Assembly (NCBI GenBank): GCA_963575745.1
Contig: CAUYUJ010000034.1
Coordinates: 62,001 to 119,367, forward strand
DNA length: 57,367 bases
Direction: 5' to 3'
Source of the DNA: Prorocentrum cordatum
Taxonomy: Eukaryota
Shown: piece by piece, positions 1,827 to 23,296 of the stretch
Numbering within the stretch: the stretch's first letter is position 1
Layout: each line of letters starts with the position of its first letter
Position numbers and translations under genes: made by a program
Notes under the pieces: model-generated
Databases searched by the model: none
Told to the model about the DNA's origin: nothing
What the model saw: only the letters and a program-made list of their open reading frames with translations

Positions 1827-2460
1827 CTTTCTCTTAAGATCACACTGCCAACAACTGGAAGTAGAATACCGATAAGCTCGACAAGTAGGGCACCTACTAG
1901 CCTCCAGATCACGATAGTGTTCGTCCTCGAGTTCTTCAAGAAACTTATCCCAACCCCGTAAAGGTGAATGTCGGTACGTGATGAGATCTGCTGCAACAAA
2001 AACGGTCAAAGTGTCCTTCTCAACTGCCAGAGCAAAACTGGTAAGTGCTGGGCTCCCAAGAGGATCACAAGCAAACAGCAAAGATACAAGTGCAACAAGT
2101 AGCGGCCGTGCGCCTCCAGCGGCACGTGTGGGCTCACCCAGTAACACAAGCAGAGAACAAATGCAGCGACCTATGCGCAGCACGTCCAGGAGGTTGCAGC
2201 CGACGAAGTACACGAACTTATGGGCCAGCGCGCACCCACGCGCGCCCACGGCCGCCCAGGGGGCAGCCTGAGGAGACAGGCTTGAGCCAGGGAGCTCGTA
2301 GAGCTCCTTCCACGCGTGAAAGTGCTCGGAGTCGAAGGAAGAGAGCTTCTGGAGGCATTTCTCAATAGAACGAACATTCAACGCCCCCGATGCTTCTAGA
2401 CTGTCTTCTGTACCAGCTCTGTAGCTCTCCTACAGCCCGAGTTACGTGCGTAAATCGACA

Positions 2461-3150
2461 GCACCTCTCAAGATGACTCGAACAATACGAACAGTTTGGC
2501 AAACCTAGCTCGAGTATTAGACCGAGTTCAGACCTCTGAATGCGACAGGCGGACGCGTCTGATGTCTCCGAATCGATTCCTGTGAGTACCAGCCCTGCAG
2601 CCCCCCTACAGCCCGAGTTAAGTGCAGAAAACCGACAGCACCTCGCAGGATGACTCGAACAATACAAATAGTTTCGCGAGCCTAGTTCGGGCAGCAGACC
2701 GAATTCCGAGCTCTGGATTCGACAGGCGATCGCGCCTGATGTCTCCGAATCGATGCATGTGACTACCAGCACTGTAGCCCCCCTGCAGCCCGAGTTAAGT
2801 ATAGAAAACCGACAGCACCTCTCAAGATGACTCGAACAATACGAATAGTTTCGCGAGTCTAGATCGGGCAGCAGACCGAGTTCAGAGCTCTGGATTCAAC
2901 AGACGAACGAGACTGATGATTCTGAATCGGTTTCTGTGAGAATCAGCTCTGTGGCTGTCATAAAGCTCGAGTTAAGTACAGAAGACCGAGAGCGCCTGTG
3001 AAGATGGCTCGAATAATACGAATAGGTTTGCGGACCTAGCTCGGCTAGCAGACCGAGTTCAGACCTCAGGCTGCAACAGACGAACGCGCCTGAGCCGTCC
3101 TCTATCTCGAGTTAAGTCAAATATACCGAGAGCGCCTATCAACATAACTC
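2461..3150. repeat. 177-bp tandem monomers (central repeats of a family A element)
   Basis: The AGACCGA(G/A)TTC landmark recurs near 2517, 2694, 2871 and 3048 (period 177). Confidence 0.9.
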
Positions 3151-3363
3151 GAAACGGCCGATCCCGCCCGTCTGCTTTTTCGCAGTAAAAGGTACCCGAT
3201 CGAGCTGAGATCAAGATGGCGAGCGGGAACAATATCGAATATCACGGGAAAAAACTAGAGCTCAAAAGAATTGAGGAATTTCGAGAACAAAATTGTTTGA
3301 ACCGACAAAAACTCGCCAAAAGGTCCGTCGAGATTTTTCTTGGCAACTAGCTCTCCAGCGCAA

Positions 3364-3786
3364 CTGGGAACCGGCGGTAAGCCGTCAACCAGGTTACCAC
3401 CGCCGGGCATCTCGTAGAGCTCTTTTCTTGCACAGGCTCTTCGGAACACATGAAAGAAGCTTCTACAGCAAGAGTTGACGATTTTTCAGTTTTCGTCCAC
3501 AGTCGGTTCCTCCAAGTGTTTTCATAGTAATACAGCCGCTAGAGTAAGAAATTTAACCAGCAGGTGGGTCATATCTGTCTACAGGGAATGAAAATCTCAC
3601 GTCTGAAAACGACTTTCAAAATTTTGACTTCTTTTTTTTTTAATACAAAAAAAAAAAAAAAAAAAAAAAAAAAAACACAACGACCCCAGGTTACTGCTAC
3701 ATTGTCTCTTTTCGTCGGGCCGGCCAACTAGCTGCACTCTGCGCCCGGATTCCTCTTAGCTCTTTAGCGAAGAGCTCTAGGAGGCA
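3364..3786 (-). mobile_element. Family C short element containing a T10/A29 tract
   Basis: CTGGGAACCGGCGG hairpin end at 3364; degenerate right subTIR AGCTCTAGGAGGCA at 3786, after which the host X cap resumes (TTACCCTTAAG). Confidence 0.7.
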
Positions 3787-5046
3787 TTACCCTTAAGCTT
3801 CCAGCCGTAACTTGCTAAGGGAAGCTCTACGAGTTATTCCTCTAGCTCATCGAGAACGAAGAGCTCTACGAGGTACGAAGAGCTCTGCGAGATACTCTTA
3901 AGCTTGCTGGCACCGGCGGTGAACCGTCAACCTGGTGACCGCCGGGAACTTCGTAGAGCTTCTCCCACGGGTGAGAGTGCTCAGAGTCGACGAAGAGAGC
4001 TTCTGGAGGCATTTCTCAAAAGAATTGAACATTATTTTTTTTCATGTCGACATGAAGTTGGTTCCCGCAAGTGCTTTGATAGTAAAAAGGCGCATACAGA
4101 GCTCATTCAAAGACGCAGAGGCCCTCACAGTCGTCTACAGCTGCGAAAAATCTGGTTTCTCAAAATGAATGGTCAAATATTGTTCACATCTCAGCAAAAC
4201 CGACCCCAAGTTATCACTTTGTCCATTCTGGCCAGATCGACCAACTGGGCGCCGGCGGTAAACCGTCAACCTTTCTTAGCGCCGGGAGACTCGTAGAGCT
4301 TCCTGACCATATATAATGTTAAAAAAATGAGAGAACGAATAATTCTTCAGCCCGAGCGATTCCAGACCTCTCGATGCAACAGCCGAACGTCCCTGATGCT
4401 TCTGGATCGTTTTCTGAGTACTAGCTCGTAGCTATCCCACGATCATATCGAGTCAGTTTCTGTGCGTATCAGCTCTGTAGCTATCCTACAGCCCGAATTA
4501 CGTGCGAAAATCGACAGCACCTCGCAAGACAACTCGATCAATACGAATAGGTTCGCGAACCAAGCTCGAGTACCAGACCGAGTTCAGACCTCTAAATGCG
4601 ACAGTCAGACGCGCCTGATGTCTCCAAATCGATTCCTGCGATAACCAGCCCTGTAGCCGCCCTGCAAGTGTAGAAAACCGACAGCGCCTCTATAACTCGA
4701 CCATACGAATAGTTTCGCGGACCTAGCTCGGGCAGCAGACCAAGTTCAGAGCTCTGGATGCAACAGACAAACGCGCCTCATCATTTTAAATCGGTTTCTG
4801 AAAGTATCAGCTCTGTAGCTGTCCTATAGCTCTCAAGTTAAGTTCAAAAACCGACAATGCCTGTCGAGATGACTGAAAACGGTCGATCCCGCCTGCCTGC
4901 TTTTTGGCAGTAAAAGAGACCCGATCGAGCTGAGATCAAGACGGCGAGCGGAAATAAGATCGAAAATAATGAAAAAAATACTAGAGCTCAAACAAATTGA
5001 GGAATTTCGAGAAAAAATGGGCGCCGGCGGTAAACCGTCAACCTGG

Positions 5047-5307
5047 TTTTCTTTGAGTTTGAGTCAGGGCGCGGACAGCTGTGACAGCTGAGCCCTAAGA
5101 CTCCCAAACGGAGCACAGGGTAGCTAGAGAAGGCACCTCTTATCATCACACTGCCGAGCCACTGAGGCATAGGCATCGGAATAGGATGCAGGAACAAGGA
5201 AAAGGATGCAACACAACATGTGAGAATGCAAAGGTGTTGGAACAGGTTAGAGAATGGTGTAAGAGCTGGTTGAAACGCTACCCAAAACGTGTTCCACGGC
5301 CAGGGAG
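5047..5307 (-). mobile_element. Short retroposed insert (SINE or 5'-truncated LINE 3' end) in a terminal hairpin
   Basis: Flanked by ACCTGG (5041-5046, 5308-5313); A-rich minus-strand tail CTCAAACTCAAAGAAAA; homologous to 8280-8564. Confidence 0.8.
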
Positions 5308-5737
5308 ACCTGGCTACCGCCGGGGACCTCGTAGAGCTCTTGTCTGGCCCAGCTCCTCAGAACACGTGAAGCAAGCTTAAGCGAGAGCCAAACAACTCAA
5401 AAAAAAATCGGTCGCGTAAAATGGTCTTGCGGCTTAGCTCGATGCCGAAGAGCTCTGCGAGGTATGTTCAACCGACCAAAAGTCGGCGAAGGTCGGTCGA
5501 GATTTTTCTTACCAACTGGCACCGGCGGTGAACCGTCAACCTGGTCTGCGGAGTCTGCGTAGGCCGATTCGAGCTCCCTGGAGAGCAGGCCAGGACACAG
5601 AGAAACCTAACCAGCGGAGCTGTACAGATATACACAGCGAAGCTGAAAAAGAAAGTACAAGTGCACAAACAGCGAAGCTGTAATGCACAAATATACAATA
5701 CACGAGAATGCAGCTCAAAGATTGTAAGATTGAAAGC

Positions 5738-5963
5738 AATGCGAGACCATGCAGTAACCACATATAGCGATTACCGTCTCAGCACCACTGAAAATAAAAG
5801 CAGTGAGAGACCATACAGTAACCACTGGTTTATACAGCGATTACCGTCTCAACACCACTGAGACAAACACAATACTAACAACTAAAATGACGAGTACACT
5901 TCAAAGTAATGCGAGACCATGCAGTAACCACATATAGCGATTACCGTCTCAGCACCACTGAAA
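5738..5963. repeat. Three ~55-bp direct repeats inside the 1.2-kb insert
   Basis: GAGACCATGCAGTAACCAC..ATAGCGATTACCGTCTCAGCACCACTGA at ~5738, ~5805 (variant) and ~5908. Confidence 0.85.
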
Positions 5964-6227
5964 GACCATGCACGTGAAACACAACGAATTTGCGGTCGAC
6001 TGTGCACAGAGTCAGGCAAGACACCCACCACTCTTTGAGCGGGAGTGGGCACATGCAAAACTCTTATTCCGAACAAAGTGAAGATCACGCGGAGCTCTTA
6101 TACCAACATACGCGCATGTCCGACACACACAGCATGGCAAGAGCCAACGCAAACACAAAGTCCGAAATATGTCATAACAACCCGCGGTAAGACAAGAGTC
6201 GTATGCTCACGTCAAATGTGTGATAAA

Positions 6228-6336
6228 TGAATGTCTGATAACGCACTCAAGAAGTAACTCTCGGAAAACTGAATGTCTGATAACGCACTCAGTATCTTGA
6301 ATCACCTGCATAACTGAATGTCTGATAACGCACTCA
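6228..6336. repeat. Three 22-bp direct repeats with 20- and 23-bp spacers
   Basis: TGAATGTCTGATAACGCACTCA at 6228, 6270 and 6315. Confidence 0.9.
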
Positions 6337-8279
6337 AGTATCTTGAACTCTGATCGATACGATTCAAAGAAAAAATGAAAACAGGCACGCCGATACAATG
6401 CAGAGAACCTCAATCTCAAGATACTCCAATGTCACAGAACTGTCAAAGTACCTCAATGTCAAAGAATACACACGTGTGCAAAAGCAATAATGGAGAAAGC
6501 GCAAGCAGGCAGCACAAACAAGTACAAAGCGACGACAGCGGCCTATGCGTTGAAGTCAGTCCCACTTCTGATGCCAAACAGAGCTGGCCTCCAGCATCTA
6601 TCGTCTGTCGGCCCAAGGAGAGAAGGTCGTCGCAGCCGACGAAGTACCCGCATGCATTGCACGGCCCGCCCGCGCGCACACGGCCGCCCAGGGGGCAGCC
6701 TGAGGAGACAGGCTTGAGGAAGCCCCCGACGGGCCAGGCCACCGCTGAGATCCCCGAGGAGGGACAGCAGCAACCTGGTCACCGCCGGGAACCTCGTAGA
6801 GCTCCTTTCACGCGCGAGAGTGCTAATAGTCGAAAGAGAGAGCTTATGGAGGCATTTCTCGAAAAATTGAACATTGATTTTTTTCATGTCGAGATGAAGT
6901 TGATTCCTCCAAGTGTTTTGATAGTAAATGTGTACCTACAGAGCTCATGTTAAGACGCAGAGGCCCTCATGGTCGTTTACAGGTGCGGAAAATCTGCTTT
7001 CTTAAAATGAATTGTCAAATATCTTTCAAGTCTGAGCAAAACCGACCCAAAGTCACCACTTTGTCCTTTCTGGTCGGGTCGACCAACTAGCGGCGCCGGA
7101 ATTCCTCTAGCTCATCGATAACTGGGCGCCGGTGGTAAACCGTCAACCTTTCTTACCGCCGGGGGCTCGTAGAGCTTCCTGACAATATCTAATGTGGAAA
7201 ATGCATAGAACGAATAATTTTTCAGCCCAAGTGATTTCAGACCTCTCGATGCAACAGCCGAACGCCCCCGATGCTTCTGGATTGTCTTCTTTACGAGCTC
7301 TGTATACAGCCCGAGCTACGTGCGTAAATCGCCAGCACCTCTCAAGATGACTAACAAAACAAATAGTTTGGCAACCCAGCTCGAGTATCAAACCGAGTTC
7401 AGACCTCTGAATGCGACAGGCGGACGCGTCTGATGTCTGCGAATCGACTCCTGTGATTACCAACCCTGCAGCCCCCTACAGCCCGAGTTACGTGCGTAAA
7501 CCGACAGCACCTCTCAGGATGACTCGAACAATACAGTGGTTTCGCGGACTAGTTCGGCCAGCAGACCGAGTTCCGAGCTCTGGATCGCGCCTGATGTCTT
7601 CAAATCGATTCCTGTGACCACCAGCACTGTAGCCTCAACCCAGCCCGAGTTGAGTGCAGAAAACCGAGAGCACTTCTCAAGATGACTCGAACAATACGAA
7701 CAGTTTCGCGATTCTAGATCGAGCAGCAGACCGAGTTCAGAGCTCTGGATTCAACAGACAAATGCGACTGATGATTTTGAATCGGTTTCTGTAAGTATCA
7801 GCTCTGCAGCTGTCCTATAGCCCGAGTTAAGTACAGAAAACCGAGAGCGTCTGTCAAGATGACCCAAATAATTAGCTTTGCAGACCTAGCTCGGCTAGCA
7901 GACCGACTTCAGACCTCTAGATTCAACAGACGAACGCGCCTGATCATTCTGAATCGATTAGCTGTGCTCACCAGCTCTGTAGCTGTCCTGAAGCTCGAGT
8001 TATCTTCAGAAAACCGTCATCGCGTGTCAAGATGGCTTGAAACAGCCGATCCCGCCTGCCTGCTTTTTGGCAGTAAAAAGTACCCGATCAAGCTGAGCGC
8101 AAAATGGCGAGCGGGAATAAGATCGAATATCATGGGAAAAATACTAGAGCTCAGACGAATTCTTGAATTTCGAGAACAAAATTTTCAACCGACCAAAACT
8201 CAGTCGAGATTTTTCTTGCCAACTAGCTCTCCAGCGCCCCGGAATTACTGGGAACCGGCGGTAAACCGTCAACCAAGTT

Positions 8280-8564
8280 TTTTTTGAGTTTGAGTCAGGG
8301 CGCGGACAGCTGTGACAGCTGAGCCCTAAGACTCCCAAACGGAGCACAGGGTAGCTGGAGAGGGCAACTCTTATCATCACACTGCCGAGCCACTGAGGCA
8401 TAGGCAACGGAATAGGATGCAGGAACAAGGAAAAGGATGCAATACAACATGTGAAAATGTAAAGGTGTTGGAGAGCTCCAAGCAAGATGAAATGAGTCAG
8501 CTGCTTGGATGAAAGATGCTACCCAAAATGTGCTCCACGGCCATACAGAGCCGTTGTGCTGCAA
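8280..8564 (-). mobile_element. Short retroposed insert (same family as 5047-5307) in a family C hairpin
   Basis: 11-bp TSD TCAACCAAGTT (8269-8279, 8565-8575); oligo(A) tail on the minus strand; 5' end differs from the 5047 copy. Confidence 0.85.
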
Positions 8565-11193
8565 TCAACCAAGTTACCGCCGGGCACCTCGTAGAGCTCT
8601 TTGCGCTCCTCGGAACACATAAGGGGAGCTTCTGAAGCGAGAGCCGAAAAACTCGAAAAATCATAATTTTTTCGGTTCTCATCCAAAGCCGGTTGCTCCA
8701 AGTGTTTGTATAGTAATACTGCACCTACAGACCTGAGAATTTGACTGGCAGACGCGGCATAACCCACTACAGGTGCGAAAAATCTGCTTTCTCAAAATGA
8801 ATTGTCAAATATCTTTCAAATCTTAGCAAAACCCACCCAAAGTTGTTACATTGTCTCTTTTCGTCGGGTCGGCCAACTGGGCGCCGGCGGTAAACCGTCA
8901 ACCTTCCTTACCGCCAGGGGACTCGTAGAGCTTCCTGACAATATATAATGTGGAAAAAATGCATAGAACGAATAGTTTTTCAGCCCAAGTGATTTCAGAC
9001 CTCTCGATGCAACAGCCGAACGCCCCCGATGCTTCTGGATTGTCTTCTTTGCGAGCTCTGTAGCTCTCCTACAGCCCGAGTTACGTACGTAAAGCACCTC
9101 TCAAGATCACTCTAACAAAACGAATACAACCCAGCTCGAGTATCAAACCGAATTCAGACTCCAACAGGCGGACGCGTCTGATGTCTGCGAATCGACTCCT
9201 GTGATTACCACCCCTGCAGCCCCCTACAGCTCTGGATTCGACAGGCAGACGCGCCTGATGTCTACAAATCGATTATTGTGACTACCAGCACTGTAGCCCC
9301 CCTACAAGCAAAGTTTAGTACAGAAAACCGACAGCACCTGACTCGAACAATACGAATAGTTTCGCAATTCTAGATCGGGCAGCAGACCGAGTTCAGAGCT
9401 CTGGATTCAACAGACAAATGCGACTGATGATTTTGAATCGGTTTCTGTAAGTATCAGCTATGTAGCTGTAGCTCGAGTTAAGTAAACAAAACTGAGAGCG
9501 TCTGTCAAGATGACTTGAATAATACAAATAGGTTTGCGGACCTAGCTCGGCTAGCAGACCGAGTTCAGACCTCTAGATTCAACAGGCGAACGCGCCTGAT
9601 CATTCTGAATCGATTAGCTGTGCTTACCAGCTCTGCAGCTGTCCTAAAGCTCGAGTTATCTTGAGAAAACCGTCATCGCGTGTCAAGATGACTTGAAACG
9701 GCCGATCCCGCCTGCCTGCTTTTTGGCAATAAAAGGTACCCGATCGAGCTGAGCTCAAAATGGCGAGCGGGAATAAGATCGAATATCATGGCAAAAAATA
9801 CTAGAGCTCAAACGAATTGTTGAATTCCGAGAACAAAACTGTGAGCCGGCGGTAAACCGTCAACCAGATTACCGCCGCGAGCCTCGTAGAGCTCTTTTCT
9901 TGCACGGCACTGCTAGAACACGTAGCAGGAGCTTTCCTGATACGCGAGCTGAAAACTCGAAGAAGTAAGTTTCTTTAGTTGTCACCCAACGACGGTTCCG
10001 CCAAGTGTTTTGATAGTAATGCTGCAGCTACGGACCTGAAAATTCATTGGAAGACGCGAAACAACCCACTACAGGTGCGAAAAATACCGGCTCTTAGAAC
10101 GAATGTTCAAATCTCTTACAAAGTTTGTCCAACCGACCCGAAGTTCGCACATTGTCCGTCGCAGCAGGGTCGGCCAACAGGGCGCCGGCGGTAAACCGTC
10201 AACCTTTCTTACCGCCGGGGACTCGTAGAGCTTCCTGACAATATATCATGTGGAAAAAGTGCAGAGAACGAATAGTTTTCAGCCCAAGCGATTTCAGACC
10301 TCTCGATGCAACAGCCGAACGCCCCCGATGCTTCTGGACTGTCTTCTTTACGAGCTCTGTAGCTCTCCTACAGCCCGCGTTACGTGCGTAAATCGACAGC
10401 ACCTGTCAAGATGACTCTGACAAAACGAACAGTTTGGGAACCCAGCTCGAGTATCAAACCGAGTTCAGACCTCTGAATGTGACAGGCGGACGCGTCTGAT
10501 GTCTGCAAATCGACTCCTGTGATTACCAGCCCTGCAGCCACCCTACAGCCCGAGTTACGTGCGTAAATCGACAGCACCTCTGATGATGACTCGAACAATA
10601 CAATAGTTTCGCGGACTAGTTCGGCCATAGCGAGTTCCGAGCTCTGGATTCGACAAGCAGACGCGCCTGATGTCTTCAAATCGATTCATGTGACCACCAA
10701 CTGTAGCCCCCCCCCCAGCCCGGGTTGAGTGCAGAAAACCGAGAGCACTTCTCAAGATAACTCGAACAATACGAATAGTTTCGTCTAGATCGAGCAGCAG
10801 ACCGAGTTCAGAGCTCTCGATTCAACAGACAAATGCGACTGATGATTCTGAATCAGTTTCTGTAAGTATCACCTCTGTAGCTGTCCTATAGCTCGAGTTA
10901 AGTACAGAAAACCAATAGCGCCTGTCAAGATGACCCGAATAATACGACTAGGTTTGCGGACCTAGCCTGGCTAGCAGACCGAGTTCAGACCTCTAGATTC
11001 AACAGGCGGACGCGCCTGATCATTCTGAATCGATTAGCTGTGCTTATCAGCTCTGTAGCTGTCCTGAAGCTCGAGTTATCTTCAGAAAACCGTCATCGCG
11101 TGTCAAGATGACTTGAAACGGCCGATCCCGCCTGCCTGCTTTTTGGCAGTAAAAGGTACCCGATCGAGCTGAGATCGAGATGGCGAGCGGGAA

Positions 11194-12395
11194 CTGGGCG
11201 CCGGCGGTAAAACCGTCAACCTTTCTTACCGCCGGGGGACTCGTAGAGCTTCCTGACAATACAAAATATGGAAAAGATGCAGAGAACGAATAGTTTTTCA
11301 GCCCCGGCGATTTCAGACCTCTCGATGCAACAGCCAAACGCCCCCGATGCTTCTGGAGCGTCTTCTTTACGAGCTCTGTAGCTCTCCTACAGCCCGAGTT
11401 ACGTGCGTGAATCGACAGCACCTCTCAAGATGACTCTAATAAAACGAATAGTTTGGCAACCCAGCTCGAGTATCAAACCGAGTTCAGACCTCTGAATGCG
11501 ACAGCTGGACGCGTCTGATGTCTGCGAATCGACTCCTGTGATTACCAGCCCTGTAGCCCCCCTTACAGCCCGAGTTAAGCAGAAAACCGACAGCACCTCT
11601 CAGGATGACTCGAACAATACGAACAGTTTCGCGAACCGAGTTCGGGCAGCCCAGTTCGAGCTCTGGATTCGACAGGCGGACACGCCTGACGTCTTAAAAT
11701 CGATTCCTGTGACCATCAGAAATGTAGCCCCCCCCCCAGCTCGAGTTGAGTGCAGAAAACCGAGAGCACTTCTCAAGATGACTCGAACAATACGAATAGT
11801 TTCGCGATTCTAGATCGGGCAGCAGACCGAGTTCAGAGCTCTGGATTCAACAGACAAATGCGACTGATGATTCTGAATCGCTTTCTGTAAGCATCAGCTC
11901 TGTAGCTGTCCTATAGCTCGAGTTAAGTACAGAAAACCGAGAGTGCCTGTCAAGATGACTCGAATAATACGAATAGGTTTGCGGACCTAGCTCGGCTAGC
12001 AGACCGAGTTCAGACCTCTAGATTCAACAGGCGAACGCGCCTGATCATTCTGGATCGATTAGTTACCAGCTCTGTAGCTGTCCCAAAGCTCGAGTTATGT
12101 TCAGAAAACCGCCATCGCGTGTCAAGAGGACTTGAAACGGCCGATCCCGCCTGCCTGCTTTTTGGCAGTACAAGGTACCCGATCGAGCTGAGATCAAGAT
12201 GGCGAGCGGGAATAAGATCGAATATCATGGGAAAAAATACTAGAGCTCATTGTTGAATTTCGAGAACAAAATTTTCAACCGACCAAAAGTCAGCAAAAGG
12301 TCCGTCGAGATTTTTCTTGCCAACTAGCTCTCCAGCGCCCCGGAATTACTCCTGAGCTTCCAGCAATAACTTGCTAAGGGGAGCTCTACGAGTTA
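11194..12395 (-). mobile_element. Complete family A element (1202 bp)
   Basis: Flanks GCGGGAA | TAAGATCGAAT rejoin to the parent GCGGGAATAAGATCGAAT with no TSD; hairpin end, monomers and X cap are present. Confidence 0.85.
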
Positions 12396-14308
12396 TAAGA
12401 TCGAATATCATGGGAAAAAATACTAGAGCTCAAACGAATTGTTGAATTTCGAGAACAAAATTTTTAACCGACCAAAAGTCAGCAAAAGGTCCGTCGAGAT
12501 TTTTCTTGCCAACTAGCTCTCCAGCGCCCCGGAATTACTCTTAAGCTTCCAGCAATAACTTGCTAAGGGAAGCTCTACGAGTTACTAGCTCCGCCCCGCG
12601 CCCTCTAGCGCATCGATGCCGAAGAGCTCTACGAGGCACTGGGCGCCGGCGGTAAACCGTCAACCTTCCTTACCGCCGGGGGACTCGTAGAGCTTCCTGA
12701 CATTGTATAATGTGGAAAAAAATCAAGAGAACGAATAGTTTTTCAGCCCAAGCGATTTCATACCTCTCGATGCAACAGCCGAACGCCCCCGATGCTTCTG
12801 GATTGTCTTCTTTGCGAGCTCTGTAGCTCTCCTACAGCCCGAGTTACGTGCGTACAAAACGAATAGTTTGGCAACCCAGCTCGCGTATCAAACCGAGTTC
12901 AGACCTCTGAATGCGACAGGCGGACGCGTCTGATGTCTACGAATCGACTCCTGTCACCACCAGCACTGTAGCCCACCTATAGACCGAGTTAAGTGCAGAA
13001 AACCGACAGCACCTCTCAAGATGACTCGAACAATACGAACATTTTCGCGATTCTCGATCAGGCAGCAGACCCAGTTCAGAGCTCTGGATTCAACAGACAA
13101 ACGCGACTGATGATTCTGAATCGATTTCTGTAAGTATCAGCTCTGTAGCTGTCCTATAGCTCGAGTTCAGTACAGAAAACCGAGAGCGCCCTGTCAAGAT
13201 GACATAATACGAATAGGTCTGCGGAGCTAGCTCGGCAAGCAGACCGAGTTCAGACCTCTGGATGCAACAGACGAACCGCGTCTGATCATTCTGAATCGAT
13301 GAGGTGTGCTGACCAGCTGTCCTATATCTCGAGTTCAGTCCAATATACCGACAGCCCATATCAAGATGACTCGAAACGGCCGATCCCGCCGGGACACTTT
13401 TTGAATAAAAAGGACCCGATCGAGCTGAGATCAAGATGGCGAGGGGAAATAACATCGAATGTCACGAGAAAAAATACTAGAGCTCTAACGAATGTTCAAT
13501 TTTTGTTGAGAACAAAATTTTGAACCGACCAAAAGTCACCTATAGGTCAGGCGAGATTTTTCTTGCCAACTAGCTCTCTAGCGCCCCGGAATTACTCTTA
13601 AGCTTCCAGCCATAACTTGCTAAGGGAAGCTCTACGAGTTACTAGCTCTCCAGCGCCCCGGAATTACTCTTAAGCTTCCAGCAATAACTTGCTAAGGCAA
13701 GCTCTACAAGTTACTGGGCGCCGGCGGTAAACCGTCAACCTTGGTTACCGCCGGAGGAGCTGCCTCACAATAACAATGTGAAAAGAAGATTGATGAGAGC
13801 GAATAATTTTTCAGCCCAAGCGATTTCAGACCTCTCGATGCAACAGCCGAACGCCCCCGACGCTTCTGCATTATCTTCTCTACGGGCTCTGAAGCTCTCC
13901 TACCGCCGGAGTAAGGTGCGTAAATCGACAGCACCTCTCAAGATGAATCGACACAATACGAATAGTTTGGCAAACCTAGCTCGAGTATCGGACCGATTCC
14001 AGACCTCTCAATGCGACAGAAGGACGCGTCTGATGTCTCTGAATCGATTTCTGTGATTACCAGCCCTGCAGCCCCTCTAGAGCCCGAGTTTAGTGCAGAA
14101 AACGGACAGCACCTCTCAGGGTGACTCGAACAATAGGAATAGTTTTGCGGAGCTAATTCGAGCAGCAGACAGTTCCGAGCTCTGAATTCGACAGGCGGAC
14201 GCACCTGATGTCTCCAGATCGATTCCCGTGACTGCAAGTACTGTAGCTCCCCTACAGCGCGAGCTGAATGAAGACCCAACAGCACCTCGCAAGCTGACTC
14301 GTATAATG

Positions 14309-16208
14309 CTTGGTAGCGTCCAAAACCCGGAGAGCGACTGGCGCCGGCGGTGAACCGTCGGCGGTCACCGCCGGGAGCCTCGTAGAGCTCCTAGCACGCG
14401 TAAGAGTGCTAAGGATCAAACGAGAGGGCTTCTGGAAGCATTTCTCGAAAAAAGAGCAAACATCATTTTTGTCATGTCGACATAAAGTTGGTTGCGCCAA
14501 GTGTTTTGACAGTAAAATTGCATCTAGAGAGCTCATATTCAGACGCTCAGGCCCTCATAGTCATCTACAGGTGCGAAAAATCTGCTTTCTCAAAATAAGG
14601 GTCAAAGATCTTTAAAATATTTGCAAAACTACCCAAAAGTTGTCACTTTGTCCTTTCTGGCCGGGTCGGCCAACTGGGCGCCGGCGGTAAACCGTCAACC
14701 TTTGTTACCGCCGGGGGACTCGTAGAGCTTCCTGAGAACATATAATGTCGAAAAAATTACACTGAAAAAATAGTTTCTTAGCCCAAGCAATTTCAGAACT
14801 CTCGGATGGAACAGCCGAACGCCCCCGATGCTTCTGGATTGTCTTCTGTACGATCTCTCTAGGTCCTACAGCCTGAGTTACGTGCGTAAATCGACAGCAC
14901 CTCTCAATATGATTCGAACAATTCGAATAGTTTGGCAAACCTAGCTCGAGTATCAGACCGAGTTCAGACCTCTGCATGCGACAGGCACACGCGTCTGATG
15001 TCTCTGAATCGATTCCTGTGATTACCAGCTCTGCAGCCCCCCTACAGCCCGAGTCAAGTGCAGGAAACCGACAGCACCTCTCAGGATGACTCGAACAATA
15101 CGAATAGTTTGGCAGACCTAGTTCGGGCAGCAGACAGAGTTCGGAGCTCTCGATCCAAAATGCACACGCGCCTGATGTCTCTGAATCGATTCCACTCATT
15201 ACCAGCCATGCAGCCCCCCGACACCCCGAGTTAAGTGCAGAGAACGGACAGCATCTCTCAAGATGACTCGAACAATACGAATAGTTTTGCAATTCTAGAT
15301 CCGGCAGCAGACCGAGTTCAGAGCTCTGGATCCAACAGACAACGGCCACTGATGATTCTGAATCAGATTCTGTACGCATCAGCTCTGTAGCTGTCCTGTA
15401 GCTCGAGTTAAGTTCAGAAAACCGAGAGCGTCTGTCAAGATGACTCGAATAATACAAATAGGTTTGCGGACCTAGCTCGGCTAGCAGACCGAGTTCAGAC
15501 CTCTGGGTTCAACAGGCGAACGCGCCTGATCATTCTGAATCGATTAGTTGTGCTTACCCGCTCTGTAGCTGCCCTGAAGCTCGAATTATCTCGAGAAAAC
15601 CGTCACCGCGTGACAGGATGACCCAAAACGGGCGATCCCGCCGCAGTGCTTTTTGGCAGTAAAAGGTACCCGATCGAGCTGAGATCAAGACGGCGAGCGG
15701 GAATAAGATCGAATATCACGGGAAAAAATACTAGAGCTCTAACGAATGGTTGAATTCCGAGAACGAAATTTTCAACCGACCAAAAGTCATCAAAATGACC
15801 GTCGAGATTCTTCTTGCCAACTAGCTCTCCAGCGCCCCGGAATTACTTAAGCTTCCAGCAAAAACATGCTAAGGGAAGCTCTACGAGTTACTGCTCCACC
15901 CCGCGCCGGAATTCCTCTAGCTCATCGTCGATGTCAAAGAGCTCTACGAGGTAACGGAGAGCGAAGAAACCCTTTGGAGACGGAAAATGTTTCCTGGAGA
16001 GCTCTGGGAAGCTTCCGGAACGCTTTCACGCGTGCCTGCATGCGTGCAGGCACGCGTGGAAGCTTGCCGGAAGCTCTCCCGGACCCGTTGCCGGGCCAGG
16101 CGAGTCTCTGCGAGGACTGTGGACCGCCGTGGAGGAGCTCCTGGCGGGCACCACCACCGTCGGGCTTCTAATCTTGAACCCTTTAGCTCTCGGCGGGCTC
16201 TCCGGGAA
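14309..16208. mobile_element. Family E GC-rich palindromic element, split by nested B (14338-15953) and A (14674-15890) elements
   Basis: Left end CTTGGTAGCGTCCAAAACCC, right end CTCTCCGGGAA. The outer flanks rejoin a 177-bp monomer (GACTCGTATAATG | CAAATAATTTCG). Confidence 0.65.
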
Positions 16209-16522
16209 CAAATAATTTCGTGATTCTAGATCGGGCAGCAAACCGAGTTGAGAGCTCTGCATTCAACGAACGAACGCGACTGATGATTCTGAATCGATTT
16301 CTGTAAGCATCAGCTCTGTAGCTGTCCTATAGCTCGAGTTCACTACAGAAAACCGAGAGCCTGTTAAGATGACTCGAATAATACGAATAGGTTTGCGGGC
16401 CTAGCTCGGCTAGCAGACCAAGTTCACACCTCTGGATCCAACAGACGAACGCGTCTGATCGTTCTGTTTGGAATAGGTGTGCTTACCAGCTCTGTAGCTG
16501 CCCTAGAGCTCGAGTTAGGTAC

Positions 16523-17410
16523 TGGGTTGGGTGTTGGGGTCGGCTACACAGGGCGCGTGCGCCCTAGCCGTGCAGAGTCCCTAGGGTCCCTCACGCCCTC
16601 TCAACCTCTTCGGGGTTGGAGGCACGAGGATCTCAGAGATAATCTGCCGAACACCTTGGAGCAGGCGTTCACAAGCTGTGAGCTCGCTATCTAGAACAGT
16701 GGCCCCCAGAGGGAGTAAAGAAGCCCCCTGGAAAACTCGTCGCCAGTGGTTGTCCCCAAATGAGACCTCCACATAGCAACCTAGAGCAGAGCCTTCAACA
16801 CTCACGCCACCGTCCCATCCTCCACGGATACGTTTGATACAATGTCTCTGTTGTCGCAAATATCTGAAGTCAATCCATCTTCCCGTCCGTCCCCTCCTCG
16901 CCTCCTAGGTCAACTCATCCGCAACACAATTGAACTCTCTGTAGATATGCTTCCACGGATCCGTCCCTACAGTGGCAACCTGATGTCGTAATCCTCAGCA
17001 AGTTGATTCATATCGTTTTGTAGACCATGCACTCTCCTGCGGTACGAACGATCACGGCATTCCCAGATCCCTCGGGCCCAGTTCACCACACACATACTAT
17101 CACCTGTCATTTCAACCAATAATGAGCCCTCCGGGCCTTCCTGCCAGACAGCTTCGTTGTTATATCCGTGGGCAATCCTACGAGCGAGCCTGTCGGAGTC
17201 CTCAGGGGAGTCCCACGTATCCACAGGACAAGGAGCACAGGGCGGTTTCCTGAAGATGGGTTCCCATCGAGGCTGTATTTCGTCATGCACGCAACTACAT
17301 TCCACCAGTCCGTCGCATTCCACTTGATGCTGAACCAGCGTAAATTACCACTCGCCGCCAGCATAAGACAATGCCAGCTGTCAGTGCTTGCATGCGCTCT
17401 CCCTCCCACC
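16523..17410 (-). pseudogene. Degraded retroelement 3' fragment with RNase H-like motifs
   Basis: Minus-strand translation gives VEMTGDSMCVVNW...[frameshift ~16968]...WKHIYREFNCVADEL*[16905-16907]...IRGGWDGG...ATVLDSELTACERL. It ends in a CCAACACCCAACCC tail within a monomer. Confidence 0.75.
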
Positions 17411-18014
17411 TCCAAAACCCGGAGAGCAAAGAGAACAAACACACACCGGAAAATCTTCCTGGCAAGCCCACGGAAGCTCGCGTGAAGCTCTTCTGGGGCT
17501 CTGGGGGGCTCCCCGGCAGCGCTTCCGAAGCGCTGCCAGAAACGCTTCCACGCGCGCCTGCACGCGAGCGGGCACGCGTGGAAGCTTGCCGGAAGCTCTC
17601 CCGGACACGTTGCCGGCTCAAACGAGCCGCTGCTGGGATTCTGGAGCGGCGGAGATGCGCTGCTGGCGGGCACCACCACCGTCCGGCTTCTAATCTCAAA
17701 CCCTTTAGCTCTCAGCGAGCTCTCCGGGAATAAAATACCGACAGCGCGCATGAAGATGACACGAGAAATATTCCCTGGAGAGAGCTGGGGGGCCTCCCCG
17801 AAGCGCTTCGGAAGCGCTGCCAGGAACGCTTCCACGCGTGCCTGCACGAGTGCAGGCACGCGTGGACGCATGCCGGAAGCGCTCCCGGACCCGCTGCGAC
17901 CCCACACGAACTGCTGCGAGGATTCCGGAGCGGCGGAGATGCGCTGCTGGCGGGCACCACCACCGTCCAGCTTCTAATCGAAAACCCTCTAGCTCTCAGA
18001 GAGCCCTCCGGGAA
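17411..18014. repeat. Two tandem ~300-bp family E units
   Basis: Each runs from TTCCTGG to CTCCGGGAA around a CCACGCG(C/T)GCCTGCACG..GGCACGCGTGGA quasi-palindrome. Confidence 0.75.
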
Positions 18015-18040
18015 AAAGGCCGTCGAGATTTTTTTGCCAA

Positions 18041-19258
18041 CTGGGCGCCGGCGGTAAACCGTCAACCTGTCTTACCGCCGGGGGACTCGTAGAGCTTCCT
18101 GACAATATATAATGTCGAAAAAAATTGCAGAGAACGAATTGTTTTTCAGCCCAAGCGATTTCAGACCTCCCGATGCAACAGCCAAACGCCCCCCGATGCT
18201 TCTGGATTGTCTTCTGCACGAGCTCTGTAGCTCTCCTACAGCCCGAGTTACGTGAGTCAATCGACAGCACCTCTGAAGATGACTCGAAGAAAACGAATAG
18301 TTTGGCAAACCCAGCCCGAGTATCAGACCGAGTTCAGACCTCTCAATGCGACAGGCGGACGCGTCTGATGTCTCCGAATCGATTCCTGTGATTACCCGCC
18401 CTGCAGCCCCCCTACAGTCCGAGTTAAGTGCAGGAAACCGACAGCATCTTTCAGGATGACTCGAACAATACGAACAGTTTCGCGAACCGAGTTCGGGCAC
18501 AGAACCGAGTTCCGAGCTCTAGATTCCACAGGCGGACGCGCCTGATGTCTGCAAATCGATTGCTGTCACCACCACTACTGTAGCCCCCCAACAGCCCGAG
18601 TTAAGTGCAGAAAACGCACAGCACCTCTCAAGATGACTCGAACAATACGAACAGTTTCGCGATTCTCGGGCAGCAGACCGAGTTCAGAGCTCTGCGTTCA
18701 ACAGACAAGCGCGACTGATGATTCTCAATCGGTTTCTGTAAGTATCAGCACTGTAGCTGTCATATAGCTCGAGATACGTACAGAAAACAGAGAGCGCCTG
18801 TCAAGATGACTCGAATAATACGAATAGGTTTGCGGACCTAGCTCGGGTAGCAGACCGAGTTCAGACCTCTGTTCGGAACAGCCGAACGCGCCTGATCATT
18901 CTGAATCGATGAGGTGTGCTGACCAGCTATGTAGCAATCCTATATGTCGAGTTAGGTTCAGTTTTCCGACAGCGCGAATCAAGATGACTCGAAACGGCCG
19001 ATCCCGCCGCAGTGCTTTTTGGCAGTAAAAGGTGCCCGATCGAGCTGAGATCAAGATGGCGAGCGGGAATAAGATCGAATATCACGGGACAAAATATTAG
19101 AGCTCTAACGAATGGTTGAATTTCGAGAAGAAATTTTTTAACCGACCAAAATCCCTCCAAATGTCCGTCGAGATTTTTCTTGCCAACTAGCTCTCCAGCG
19201 CCCCGGGATTACTCTTAAGCTCCCAGCAATAACTTGCTAAGGGAAGCTCTACGAGTTA
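18041..19258 (-). mobile_element. Complete family A element (1218 bp)
   Basis: Flanks TTGCCAA | CTAGCTCTCC rejoin the parent; both termini are intact. Confidence 0.85.
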
Positions 19259-20572
19259 CTAGCTCTCCAGCGCCCCGGAATCCTTTTCAGCTTCCAGCAA
19301 TGACATGCTCAGGGAAGCTCTACGAGTTACTGGAAACCGGCGGTAAACCGTCAACCAGGTTACCGCCGGGCACCTCGTAGAGCTCTTCTCTTGCGCAGCG
19401 CTTCTCGGAGCACATGAAGGAAGCTTCGAGCAGAAAAATTCGGAAAAACACTATTTGTTGGTTTTGATCCAAAGTCGGTTCCCTCAAGTCTTTTGATAGT
19501 AATACTCTAGCTACAGACTGAGAATTTTACTGGCAGACGCGGCGCAACCCACTGCACGTGAGAAAAATGTTGGTTCTCAAAACGAATTTCAAAATCTTGT
19601 ATAAAGTGAAAAAAAACGACCCCAGGTTACCACATTGTCTCTTTTGTTCGGGCCCGCCAACTGGGCGCCGGCGGTAAACCGTCAACCTTTGTTACCGCCG
19701 GGGGACTCGTAGAGCTTCCTGATAATATTTAATGTTTAAAAAAATGCAGAGAACGAGTAGTTTTTCAGCCCAAGCGATTTCAGACTTCTCGATGCGACAG
19801 CCGAACGCCCCCGATGCTTCTAGATTATATCCTGTACGGGCTCTGTAGCTCTCCTACAGCCGGAGTTACAAAATCGACAGCATCTCTCAAGATGACTCGA
19901 ACAATACGAATAGTTTGGCAAACCTAGCTCGAGTATCAAACCGAGTTCAGACCTCTGAATGCGAGAAGCGGACGCATCTGATGTCTCCGAATCGATGCCT
20001 GTGATTACCCGCCCTGCAGCCTCCCTACAGCCCGAGTTAAGTGCAGAAAACCGGCAACACCTCTCAGGATGACTCGAACAATACGAATAGTTTGGCGGAA
20101 CTAGTTCGGGCAGCAGACCGAGTTCAGAGCTCTGGATTCGACAGACGAACGCGACTGATGATTCTGAATCAGTTCATGTTAGTATCAACTCTGTAGCTGT
20201 CATATAGCTCGAGTTTAGTACAGAAAACCGAGAGCGTCTGTCAAGATGACTCAAATAATACGAATAGGTTTGCGGACCTAGCTCGGCTAGCAGACCGAGT
20301 TCAGACCTATGGATTCAACAGACAAACGCGCCTGATGATTCTGGATGCGATAGCTGTGCCCACCAGCTCTGTAGCTGCCCTACAGCTCGAGTTAAGTACA
20401 AAATACCGACAACGTATGAAGATGACTCGAAACGGCCGATCCCGCCGGGACGCTTTTTGGCATTGAAAGCTACCCGATCGAGCTGAGATCAAGATGGCGA
20501 GCGGGAATAAGATCGAATATCATGGGAAAAAATACTAGAGCTCGAACGATTTGTTGAATTTCGAGAACAAAA

Positions 20573-21364
20573 CTGGAACCGGCGGTAAACCGTCAACCAA
20601 GTTACCGCCGGGGCTCTCGTAGAGCTCTTTCTCGCACGGCGCTGCTCGATACACATGCAGATAGAGTCTGAAAGAAGACTCCCTAAAACTCGAAAAATCA
20701 CGTTTATTTTTAATCCAAAGACGGTTCCGCCAAGTGTTTTGATAGCAATACTGCACCTACATACCTGAGAATCCACTTACGAACGCACAATAACCCACTA
20801 CAGGTGCGAAAAAAACCGGATCTCAAAACGAATGTTCAAATCTCTCACGAAGTTCGTCCAACCGACCCAAAGTTCGCACATTGTCCGTCGGGGCCGGGTC
20901 GGCCTACTAGCTGCACCCCGCGCCCGAATTCCTGTAGCTCATCGATGCCGAAGAGCTCTACGAGGTACTGGGAACCGGCGGTAAACCGTCAACCAAGTTA
21001 CCGCCGGGCACCTCGTAGAGCTCTCTTCTTACACAGCGCTCCTCCGAACACGTGAAGGAAGCTTCTGAAGCGAGAGCCGAAAAATTCGAAACATGACGAT
21101 TTTTCGGTTTTCATGCAGTGGGTTCCTCCAAGTCTTTTGATAGTAATACTGGACCTAGAGCCATACAAAAATTTACCAGCAGGTGCGCCATAGCTTACTA
21201 CAGAGAATAAAAATCTCACTTCTAAAAACGAACTTCAAAATTTTGCATAAAGTGAAAAACACCGACCCCAGGTTACCACATTCTCTCTTTTCGTCGGGCA
21301 AGCCGACTAGCTCACCCTGCGCCCGAATTCCTCTTAGCTCTTTGCCGAAGAGCTCTACGAGGTA
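20573..21364 (-). mobile_element. Head-to-tail pair of family C elements (20573-20967, 20968-21364)
   Basis: Outer flanks GAGAACAAAA | TTTTCAACCGA rejoin exactly; internal junction is GAGGTA|CTGGGAACC. Confidence 0.85.
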
Positions 21365-21436
21365 TTTTCAACCGAACAAGTCACCAAAAGGTCCGCCGAG
21401 ATTTTTCTTGCCAGCTAGCTCTCCAGCGCCCCGGAA

Positions 21437-21833
21437 CTGGGAACCGGCGGTAAACCGTCAACCAAGTTACCGCCGGGCACCTCGTAGAGCTCTCTTCTTA
21501 CACAGCGCCCCTCCGAACACGTGAAGGAACCTTCTGAAGCGAGAGCCGAAAAAATCGAAAAATGACGATTTTTCGGTTTTCATACAATGGGTTCCTCCAA
21601 GTGTTTTGATAGTAATACTGGACCTAGAGCTATAGAAAGTTTACCAGCAGGTGCACCATAGCTTACTGCAGGGAATAAAAATCTCACTTCTAAAAACGAA
21701 CTTCAAAATTTTGCATAAAGTGAAAAACACCGACCCCAGTTTACCACATTCTCTCTTTTTGTCGGGCCGGCCAACTAGCTTCACCCTGCGCCCGAATTCC
21801 TCTTAGCTCTTCGCCAAAGAGCTCCACGAAGTA
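21437..21833 (-). mobile_element. Complete family C element (397 bp), close copy of 20968-21364
   Basis: Flanks CCCCGGAA | TTACTCTTAAG rejoin exactly. Confidence 0.85.
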
Positions 21834-22815
21834 TTACTCTTAAGCTTCCAGCAATAACTTGCTAAGGGAAGCTCTACGAGTTACTAGGAATTCCTCTTGG
21901 CTCTTTGGTGAAGAGCTCTACGAGGTACTAGCTCTACCCCGCGCCGGAAATCCTCTAGCTCATCGATGCCGAGCAGCTTTACAAGGTACTCTGCCAGCAA
22001 TAACTTGCTAAGGGAAGCTCTACGAGTTACAAAAAGCTCTACGAGGTACTATCTCTCCAGCGCCCCGGAATTACTCTAAAGCTTCCAGCAACTGGCTCAG
22101 GGAAGCCCTGCGAGTTTCTAGCTCCACCTCGCGCTGGAATTCCTCTGGCTCATCGATAACGAAGAGCTCTACGAGGTACTAGCTCAGGGGAAGCTCCACA
22201 AGTTATTGTTGACCGACCAAAAGGCACCAACGGGTCCGTTGCGACTGGGCGCCGGCGGTAAACCGTTAACCTTTCTAAGCGCCGGGAGACTCGTAGAGCT
22301 TCCTGACCATATATAATGTCCAAACAAATGAGAGAACGAATAGTTGTTCAGCCCGAGCGATTCCAGACCTCTCGATGCAACAGCCGAACGTCCCTGATGC
22401 TTCGTGATCGTTTTCTGTGCGTACTAGCTCGTAGCTATCCAGCCCGAGCTCAATACAGAAAAGGGACAAAATCTGCGAACGTGACTTGAAGAATACGAAT
22501 ACTTTTGCGGACCTAGCCTGAGTTGCAAACCAAGTTCAGACCTTTGGATGCAACAGACGAACGCGCAGGATGATATCGAGTCAGTTTCTGTGCGTATCAG
22601 GCTCTGTCGCTATCCTACAGCCCGAATTACGTGCTAAAATCGGCAGCACCTCGCAAGACAACTCGATCAATACGAATAGGTTCGCGAGCCTAGCTCGAGT
22701 ACCAGACCGAGTTCAGACCTTTAAATGCGACAGGCGGACGCGCCTGATGTCTCCAAATCACTGGATGCAAGAGACAAGCGCGCCCCATCGTTTTGAATCG
22801 GTTTCTGAAAGTATC

Positions 22816-23296
22816 GCCTGTCGAATCCAGAGCTCGGAACTCGGTCTGATGAACTAGTCCGCGAAACCATTGTATTGTTCGAGTCATCATGAGAGGTGCT
22901 GTCGATTTGCGCACGTAGCTCGGGCTCTAGGGGGGCTGCAGGGCTGGTAATCACAGCAGTTGATTCGCAGACATCAGACGCGTCTGCCTGTCGCATTCAG
23001 AAGTCTGAACTCGGTTTGATACTCGAGCTGGGTTGCCAAACTATTCGTTTTGTTAGAGTCATCTTGAGAGGTGCTGTCGATCTACGCGTGTAACTCGGGC
23101 TAAGGGAGAGCTACAGAGCTCGCGAAGAAGACAATCCAGAAGCATCGGGGACGTTCGGCTGTTGCATCGAGAGGTCTGAAATCGCTTGGGCTGAAAACTA
23201 TTCGTTCCCTGCATTTTTTCCACATTATATATTGTCAGGAAGCTCTACGAGTCCCCCGGCGGTAAGAAAGGTTGACGGTTTGATGCCGGCGCCCAG
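22816..23296 (+). mobile_element. Truncated family A element in the opposite orientation
   Basis: Reverse complement of monomers and head, ending AGCTCTACGAG..hairpin..GCCCAG|TT. Confidence 0.8.

Follow-up and report, generated by a model that had tools for sequence, protein, structure and literature searches.

A probable non-autonomous Helitron2/Helentron-type element within a one-orientation nest of related copies

Introduction

What is the unit that occupies positions 12395 to 11194 of the minus strand of this DNA, how did it come to lie within a long pile of similar units, and what kind of enzyme is likely to move it? The window, by which we mean the whole stretch of 57,367 nt that was analysed, raises these questions because the preliminary description of this unit had read it as a Helentron/HINE-like rolling-circle element, mobilised by a HUH transposase encoded elsewhere.

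The group to which this reading refers has several described hallmarks. In the account of Thomas et al. (2014, PMC4067079), HINEs and Helentrons carry sub-terminal repeats of 12-15 nt, at a distance of 2-4 nt from the 5′ terminus and of 38-60 nt from the 3′ terminus. A palindrome lies near the latter, the targets, T-rich or TT, are left unmodified, and tandem repeats are sometimes present. Helitron2 elements are described as having hairpins at both ends, with the 5′ repeat joining the 5′ hairpin and the 3′ repeat located just upstream of the 3′ hairpin; they begin with T, show compensatory changes, and their 3′ ends are in excess (Bao and Jurka, 2013, PMC3627910). The HELIANO paper describes insertion of the Helitron2/Helentron group between T and T (PMC11417382). 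Our study indicates that the copy at 11194..12395 is most likely a well-formed non-autonomous Helitron2/Helentron (HINE-like) element, of a known kind and not a new class.

Results

Anatomy of the copy

The copy, the representative of the family that we call F1, is a complete element of 1,202 bp that runs from 12395 to 11194 on the minus strand and has no coding capacity. Its parts are the following.

11194..12395, minus strand: complete non-coding F1 element (termini read from the sequence; both ends abut host sequence precisely)
12343..12395, minus strand: 5′ end module, consisting of T-A-A and the 5′ repeat CTCGTAGAGCT (12392..12382), then an inner hairpin that is variable, with GGAGTAAT as closing word
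12212..12342, minus strand: remainder of the 184-nt head, with the sites that are interrupted in other copies (after ..AAGAG, ..GCTAG, ..GAAAA and ..GATCTTA)
11308..12136, minus strand: central tandem array, about 4.4 x 177 bp (Tandem Repeats Finder: period 177 at 11372..12136, period 349 at 11308..12136)
11240..11250, minus strand: the 3′ member of the sub-terminal inverted repeat, AGCTCTACGAG, which ends 46 nt before the terminus
11201..11235, minus strand: 3′ hairpin with arms CCGGCGGTAA (11235..11226) and TTACCGCCGG (11210..11201) and a loop containing GGTTGACGG (DNA fold)
11194..11200, minus strand: 3′ tail CGCCCAG, with T next, at 11193 (sequence read)

Read on the minus strand, the element starts at 12395 with TAACTCGTAGAGCT and ends with, in order, AGCTCTACGAG, TCCC, CCGGCGGTAA, a 15-nt loop, TTACCGCCGG and CGCCCAG, after which comes a T. 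The 11-nt word at the 5′ end, CTCGTAGAGCT, and the word at the 3′ end are reverse complements of each other, and they lie asymmetrically, the former 3 nt and the latter 46 nt from its terminus. The Helitron2/Helentron group is recognised by an asymmetric inverted repeat of 8-16 nt, of which the 5′ member lies 0-4 nt from the end and the 3′ member is sub-terminal, and the F1 copy has exactly this arrangement. Its interior is occupied by 4.4 copies of a 177-bp unit at 11372..12136 (Tandem Repeats Finder). The termini, the following T and the central tandem repeats listed in the preliminary description were all recovered. The boundary is ambiguous by one T, since TAAC...CCCAG before TT is the same string as AAC...CCCAGT between T and T.

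The described termini are far from chance. When up to two mismatches are allowed, the window contains 52 instances of AGCTCTACGAGNNNNCCGGCGGT, which comprises the 3′ word and the left hairpin arm; 51 of them read on the minus strand and one on the plus strand, and 100 dinucleotide-preserving shuffles contain none. Scans of the window with Rfam and for tRNAs gave no match.

Insertion without target-site duplication

The F1 copy is a precise insertion into another F1 copy, without target-site duplication. Joining its two flanks (GATCTTA|TTCCCGC) creates a sequence that is matched by 28 uninterrupted paralogous sites in the window, gap-free at the junction and with a best identity of 97.5%; this internal empty-site comparison bears out the lack of a target-site duplication noted earlier. 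The host is itself inserted in a third element, giving a local nest of three levels.

12396..12584, minus strand: head of the host F1 (positions 1-184), 94.7% identical to the same positions of the inserted copy
10178..11193, minus strand: rest of the host F1, from position 184/185 onwards, with 90.9% identity to the inserted copy (positions 184-1200); the 3′ end of the host lies at 10178
12585..12638, minus strand: head of an F3-type element of about 393 bp, in which the host F1 is inserted after ..GCTAG (junction spanned in the un-nesting)
9839..10177, minus strand: remainder of the same F3-type element (un-nesting)

Once the insert is removed, the host F1 measures 1,205 bp and is colinear with F1 over the junction, and the F3-type element, without its inserts, measures 393 bp and is colinear with its family. 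The head of the latter, at 12638, directly adjoins the 3′ end of the preceding element at 12639.

This mode of insertion is not confined to one copy. Sixteen complete copies were examined, eight of which have a paralogous empty site that is gap-free at the junction (those starting at 12395, 37563, 40247, 44957, 19258, 15890, 23677 and 25601); among the rest, one extra T is seen in one, a spanning site is lacking for three, and the remainder are tandem or gapped cases. The absence of target-site duplication or modification that characterises the Helitron2/Helentron group was thus seen cleanly in half of the complete copies examined (8/16), and the consistent duplications among copies that would have spoken against the preliminary reading did not appear.

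A nest of about 50 copies in one orientation

The three-level nest is a small part of a much larger one.

2380..57367, minus strand: nest of about 50 copies from at least five families that share their end architecture
Family sizes: F1, about 1.2 kb; F2 and F3, about 0.4 kb; F4, about 1.4 kb; F5, about 2.1 kb

A BLAST comparison of the F1 copy with the window gave 328 alignments, and representatives of the five families together cover 49,461 of its 57,367 bases (86%); the minus strand accounts for 48,702 and the plus strand for 764, which places 98% in one orientation. Interiors are similar between F1 and F4 on the one hand and among F2, F3 and F5 on the other, and the end modules are common to all five. 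The G+C content of the window, in 2-kb steps, is 46-58%. Some neighbouring units, such as 37610..36138 and 39134..37611, are possible tandem duplicates.

We counted 53 3′ ends and 45 5′ ends in the window. The base after the 3′ end is T in 52 of 53 cases and the next two are TT in 35 of 53 (backgrounds 28% and 8.9%, respectively), and AG precedes the 5′ end in 23 of 45 (background 7%); these flank counts, like the pair counts below, are of copies and not of independent events, since segmental duplication inside the pile inflates them. Every 5′ end begins with T, and the string can equally be read as an insertion between T and T. The window copies therefore have both the TT or T-rich target and the 5′ T of the Helitron2/Helentron group.

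Ten junctions join elements head to tail. Several of them are between families, for example from F3 to F1 at 19330/19329 and from F1 to an F2/F3-type head at 12639/12638, so that these are insertions at the 3′ junction of a resident element, and read-through multimers of a single element cannot account for them. Automatic un-nesting, in which 5′ and 3′ ends were paired, resolved 42 elements over 8 rounds, with nesting up to 8 levels deep. Of 25 un-nested junctions, only 12 were colinear with a representative of the family; no partner was assigned to 11 of the 3′ ends and 3 of the 5′ ends, so that part of the pile is truncated, rearranged or mis-parsed.

The only ORFs in the non-repeat parts of the window are LINE-like (3..2429 and around 16540..17350), and a protein search of a broad taxon with the LINE-like ORF1 gave 2 relatives only. 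Retroposon-like insertions, with tails and duplications of 7-10 bp, occur elsewhere in the window.

Covariation in both end modules

Both end modules are backed by compensatory changes. The 5′ module opens with T[A/G][A/C]CTCGTAGAGC, continues with an inner hairpin that is variable and closes with the word AGAG[T/G]AAT; the DNA fold pairs ACTC with GAGT around the inner stem. Among 81 distinct heads from the window and the metagenome loci described below, the closing pair, formed by position 3 and the base after GAG, is kept in 78 (A:T in 52, C:G in 20, G:C in 1 and a wobble in 5, against 3 mismatches), and 67 are predicted to form an inner stem of 5 bp or more. These heads thus have a 5′ hairpin that involves the 5′ repeat, as in the Helitron2/Helentron group.

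The 3′ hairpin typical of this group is also present, with a stem that folds to 10-12 bp. Of 48 window copies, 30 have A:T and 13 have G:C at pair 9 of the stem. In a MAFFT alignment of 115 distinct 3′ modules, some rows of which are one base out of register, 82.8% of cells are paired and 8 of 12 pairs change on both sides, a number reached by 3 of 500 shuffles. The stem has 47 double-change cells where 8.6 are expected in these 115 modules, and its covariation score is 0.157, compared to 0.090 in shuffled alignments (reached by 0 of 500) and at most 0.061 in slid controls. Secondary copies with variant arms, which come from the fetched metagenome loci and were not picked by the search word, also keep their arms complementary (CCGAGCGG/CCGCTCG, CCAGGCAG/CTGCCTGG, CCGCCAG/CTGGCGG and CCGGTGG/CCACCGG), with the loop GGTTGAC conserved between them. 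The folding energies of single sequences are only mildly below those of shuffles (z between -1.3 and -2.9) and are unremarkable, so it is conservation and covariation that support functional ends.

Relatives in metagenomes and other collections

Scanning metagenome contigs with a 19-nt word from the right arm gave at least 134 matches in at least 120 loci. Both the 3′ repeat and the left arm accompany 95 of the 134 matches listed; a further 22 have just the arm, 1 has just the repeat, and 16 lack both. The listed matches comprise 83 distinct 3′ modules, on contigs with a G+C content of 34-62% (64 contigs of at least 1 kb), and T is the eighth base after the hairpin in 77 of these 83 modules, among the matches listed. 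Most listed loci match only F1 positions of about 1147-1196; similarity to the head or to the repeats, at about 68-92%, is found in nine of them (L003, L007, L041, L054, L057, L060, L069, L108 and L112). Complete elements in the listed loci measure about 340-1,800 bp, heads are often stacked 2-8 in a row, as they are in the window, and in many contigs the same ends adjoin unrelated sequence. Six of the listed loci (L013, L025, L042, L049, L051 and L073) are prokaryote-looking contigs with a 3′ module at their end, and may be chimeric. Metagenome runs from marine, estuarine and freshwater settings are listed as containing parts of the F1 copy.

In 596 Gb of prokaryote genomes, the 19-nt word has 17 matches, 15 of which have neither repeat nor arm; the other two are on two contigs of one marine genome bin, with one full module. 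A Helitron_like_N search gave no match in this bin, and none in control genomes either. In viral contigs, the same word has 2 matches, both chance-like.

The family is present in very high copy number in two organisms, whose public runs gave 125,053 and 28,848 short contigs on the 3.7 kb between 10100 and 13800. The contigs of four runs on this same interval are pieces of 75-190 nt, with hundreds of joints, and are indistinguishable from paralogous copies.

Search for the mobilising enzyme

Five window ORFs had no match in Pfam. The search was extended to 50 ORFs of at least 160 aa from the related metagenome loci, chosen from 191 by omitting five high-G+C loci with a chance-like match and, for the most part, overlapping frames; none of these, encoded on short contigs, matched Helitron_like_N or PIF1. 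The PIF1-type Walker A word G..G[TSC]GK[ST] did not occur in any of the six frames of the window and of 120 loci, again on short contigs, and no recombinase ORF was found among the 5 window ORFs and the 50 locus ORFs. A 340-aa ORF upstream of a 3′ end in locus L029 does not resemble a transposase.

The Helentron/HINE reading of the preliminary description thus holds for the structure (sub-terminal inverted repeats, both hairpins, the T/TT target, the lack of a target-site duplication, the tandem array and the absence of coding capacity), and the HUH RepHel partner that it had called for was not among the 50 ORFs. As no transposase was found in the sequence searched, it is the architecture of the ends that links the element to RepHel, and both this enzyme and single-strand rolling-circle chemistry are suggested by that architecture.

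Discussion

Proposed mechanism

For an element with this anatomy, inserted without duplication at a T/TT target, with covarying ends, a strong orientation bias and end modules of wide occurrence, it is probable that F1 is moved in trans by RepHel, as a non-autonomous element of the Helitron2/Helentron type. RepHel, in which a two-tyrosine HUH nuclease is joined to a PIF1-like helicase and sometimes also to an AP-endonuclease domain, would be encoded by an autonomous partner elsewhere. It would be predicted to recognise the 5′ hairpin, which contains the 5′ repeat, together with the 3′ repeat and hairpin, and to nick one strand just before the 5′ T and 7 nt past the 3′ hairpin. The nicked strand would be peeled off or copied and then joined into a single-stranded target immediately before T or TT, with no duplication. 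The sites accepted often resemble the element's own 3′ junction (..AG|T). Resident copies provide them in two places, namely the 3′ end and the first ~185 nt, where they follow, among others, ..AAGAG (the foot of the 5′ hairpin) and ..GCTAG. New copies would consequently insert within older ones or immediately after them, with the orientation preserved, and generate the nested head-to-tail pile.

A broader possibility is that the two nearly invariant end modules mark a lineage across many aquatic eukaryotes, with either a non-standard transposase or a RepHel that unusually favours, as acceptor sites, the base of the element's 5′ hairpin and the element's 3′ junction (..AG|T), and that one-orientation satellite-like arrays of tens of kilobases form by transposition and not by unequal crossing-over; we view this as unlikely.

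Other explanations

The alternative that survives best, though we judge it quite unlikely, is that a different or undescribed HUH enzyme acts on single-stranded DNA, be it a Replitron-like Rep with one tyrosine, an IS200/IS605- or IS91-like enzyme or a new group. The lack of RepHel in the 50 ORFs, the window and the 120 loci is compatible with this idea, as is the AG before 23 of 45 5′ ends, since Replitron-1 is described as inserting after RG, in one orientation, and hairpins at the two ends are presented as general for HUH transposons (PMC10288648). However, the same paper describes Replitrons with short direct terminal repeats and without inverted sub-terminal repeats, while the 11-nt inverted repeat here is placed exactly as in Helitron2; moreover, 15 of the 17 matches in the prokaryote collection are chance-like.

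An element of the tyrosine- or serine-recombinase type (Crypton- or IS607-like), moved by recombination at a one-base T overlap, would also leave no target-site duplication and would account for the one-T ambiguity of the boundary. Nevertheless, it is very unlikely. No recombinase ORF was seen among the ORFs examined, and recombinase elements are not known to have a conserved 3′ hairpin or abundant non-autonomous families. In addition, such elements are described as having no terminal inverted repeats (Bao and Jurka, PMC3627910).

The satellite-like appearance of the locus could suggest that nothing here moves at all, and that the units belong to an immobile repeat, either a complex satellite or one of higher order, that owes its spread to unequal crossing-over and segmental duplication. 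The coverage of 86% of the window in one orientation, the 177-bp internal repeats, the very many short contigs of two organisms that match and neighbours resembling tandem duplicates (37610..36138 and 39134..37611) would all be expected of such a repeat. It would not explain why interruptions occur precisely at fixed ends and match uninterrupted sequence elsewhere, why unrelated interiors have only the two end modules in common, why covariation preserves both hairpins, or why the same ends lie next to unrelated sequence in many metagenome contigs, and we consider it highly improbable.

It is harder still to believe that F1 is a SINE-like retroposon copied by the LINE of the window. Such an origin would explain the excess of 3′ ends (53, compared to 45 5′ ends, with 11 3′ ends unpaired) and the 5′-shortened copies, and LINE-like ORFs are present at 3..2429 and around 16540..17350. 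Yet the elements have neither an A-rich or microsatellite tail nor a target-site duplication, which the real retroposon-like insertions of the window do carry (tails and duplications of 7-10 bp), their full-length copies have exact 5′ ends and the LINE piece has a different end. An excess of 3′ ends is, furthermore, described for Helitron2 too (PMC3627910). Lastly, an ordinary MITE moved by a DDE transposase, which the short inverted repeats and the small, non-coding nature of the elements might bring to mind, is the least probable of all, given the absence of a target-site duplication in 8 clean events, the position of the 3′ repeat 46 nt inside the end and the strong orientation specificity of insertion.

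Significance

The Helitron2/Helentron-type reading makes this locus a clean natural example of non-autonomous elements that carry satellite-like repeats, and one in which long repeat arrays can arise as elements insert within and behind each other with the same orientation. What stands out is the depth and polarity of the nest and the wide recurrence of the end modules in aquatic metagenomes. The covarying modules also provide a compact search key, with a 5′ part of about 45 nt and a 3′ part of about 55 nt, for relatives and, in a full assembly, for the autonomous partner; at the right end, this key takes the form GCTCTACGAG-N3-8-hairpin (with the GGTTGAC loop)-N7. It should be useful because standard Helitron finders seek TC...CTRR ends and miss the Helitron2/Helentron group, as described in the HELIANO paper (PMC11417382).

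Comparison with known systems

Three other classes do not fit the F1 copy. Canonical Helitrons (HLE1) have a 5′ TC, a 3′ CTRR, insertion between A and T and no inverted repeats, whereas the ends in the window are T[A/G][A/C]C and ..CCAG/..CCCAG, with inverted repeats, a T after the element and mostly G before it. A DDE-type MITE would have inverted repeats at both extreme ends and a target-site duplication of fixed length, and neither is seen here. Replitrons share with F1 the insertion in one orientation after a purine and G, the right-end hairpin and the existence of non-autonomous partners, but differ in their direct terminal repeats and, for Replitron-1, in the fuzzy right ends and variable duplications that are described for it (PMC10288648) and that F1 does not have; the F1 termini TAACTCG... 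and ...CGCCCAG have no direct repeat in common.

F1 resembles HINE/DINE-1 elements and Helentrons, as characterised by Thomas et al. (PMC4067079). The F1 repeat offsets of 3 and 46 nt fall within their ranges, the 3′ palindrome, the unmodified T-rich or TT target and the tandem repeats of some members are alike, and in both cases ends are shared among families with unrelated interiors. The differences are the position of the palindrome, 7 nt from the end in F1 and about 8-35 nt in theirs, and the Helentron partner, none having been found for F1 in the sequence searched. By the rule of 11 identical bases that these authors apply, CTCGTAGAGCT, which is outside the 15 repeats of their Table S2, defines a separate family, and F1 would accordingly be a new family when set against those 15 repeats. 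The F1 end strings are absent from the supplements of two papers, and in a literature string search with four end 10-mers, the titles among the matches listed concern unrelated work (primer or oligonucleotide strings).

Helitron2 elements such as Helitron-1N1_CRe, as presented by Bao and Jurka (PMC3627910), have two hairpins in the same layout relative to the repeats, a 5′ T and an excess of 3′ ends, as F1 does; both insert after T-rich sequence or before T without duplication, and both have compensatory changes in their hairpins. Their repeats lie closer to the termini than the 3 and 46 nt seen in F1, with offsets of 0-2 nt (5′) and 20-30 nt (3′). In Fusarium oxysporum, FoHeli1/2 are described with a 12-nt asymmetric repeat, of which the 3′ copy is 38-51 nt from the end, and with two hairpins, an arrangement like that of F1; insertion before T and tandem or self-inserted copies are also common to both (PMC5148889). 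Unlike F1, FoHeli1/2 are autonomous fungal elements of 5-6 kb, and their joined ends were detected by PCR (PMC5148889).

By layout, the closest analogues of F1 are the Cg_HINEs of the Pacific oyster (PMC7492417), although similarity in sequence would not be expected. As they are described there, both have a 5′ repeat of 11-12 nt, shortly after which comes a word complementary to it, a 3′ repeat that precedes a palindrome inside the last ~60 nt, and a central array of 140-180-bp units, mostly in 2-5 copies and in fixed orientation; both also favour TT, insert without duplication and often land in other repeats. They differ in that no microsatellite was noted in the left flank of F1, and in that the window copies are nested and nearly all in one orientation, whereas Cg_HINEs occur in both. 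Pearl, DTC84 and MgE of other bivalves are described, like Cg_HINE, as non-autonomous Helentrons with central satellite-like arrays (PMC7492417).

Insertions within and beside the nested families

The 3' hairpin loop of families F1-F5, which share one end architecture and form a nested pile, nearly all on the minus strand, has itself received other DNA in the window:

8265..8565, minus strand: insertion in 3' hairpin loop, with target-site duplication
5038..5320, minus strand: insertion in 3' hairpin loop, with target-site duplication
about 5545..6771, minus strand: insertion in 3' hairpin loop, with target-site duplication

These three insertions struck the loops of three separate copies, within a few bases around one spot. 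Two are copies of one A-tailed, retroposon-like sequence of ~300 nt with a variable 5' end, and their target-site duplications are ACTTGGTTGA and [A/G]CCAGGT; the third, of 1.2 kb, is unrelated to this pair and is accompanied by the duplication GACCAGGTTG. The loop may be a hot spot for, or a specific target of, other elements.

Four further stretches of the window were delimited:

about 15954..18040, minus strand: separate repeat family, starting TTCCCGGAG(G/A)GCTC...
3..2429, minus strand: LINE-like 5' part
22814..23296, plus strand: stretch of F1-F5 families, a 3' part that faces a minus-strand copy
43727..44007, plus strand: stretch of F1-F5 families

The separate repeat family sits within a copy of F1, the ~1.2-kb, probably non-autonomous Helitron2/Helentron-type family, and adjoins 177-bp repeats at about 16540. 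It has a 284-bp tandem unit (17501..18014), and one stretch within it reads to us as a LINE's RNase H end. Fragments similar to it are found at 23914..24943 and 34073..34375. The LINE-like part at the window edge comprises an open frame of 571 codons followed downstream by one of 237 codons; the latter, which had no Pfam match, looks to us like the start of an AP-endonuclease. Just two relatives (53-55% identity) were found among 5.8 billion proteins. The two plus-strand stretches, 764 bases in total, are the only ones of F1-F5 in the window.

Related modules in metagenome loci

Metagenome loci were fetched with the 19-nt right-arm word of the 3' module (L-numbers). In six of them (L013, L025, L042, L049, L051 and L073) this module adjoins tightly spaced, prokaryote-looking genes: pantoate ligase and starch synthase, PAPS reductase, MOSC, RNase HII with Glu/Gln-tRNA synthetase, pyruvate kinase, and POTRA/Omp85. 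In L013, G+C content shifts abruptly and the ligase match ends after about 140 residues. True insertion into prokaryotes seems less likely than chimeric assembly, since across 596 Gb of prokaryote genomes all matches looked like chance, except those on two contigs from a single genome bin.

Two other loci carry features of note:

L068 1407..1961, minus strand: similarity to an ISXO2-like (IS1595) DDE transposase domain, weak and under the cut-off
L049 186..244, minus strand: divergent 3' module opposite a canonical one, about 25 nt apart

The DDE-like match lies in flank DNA separating two elements, outside either of them. Compared with the window's canonical arms, the divergent module is altered on both sides at three stem pairs, and its loop is unchanged.

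Finally, seven loci (L002, L003, L013, L029, L036, L074 and L089) contain rows of two to eight stacked 5' heads of 35-55 nt each, the next head beginning directly after the ..AGAG(TAA) of the preceding one. Other organisms thus show the self-nesting seen in the window at the base of the 5' hairpin.
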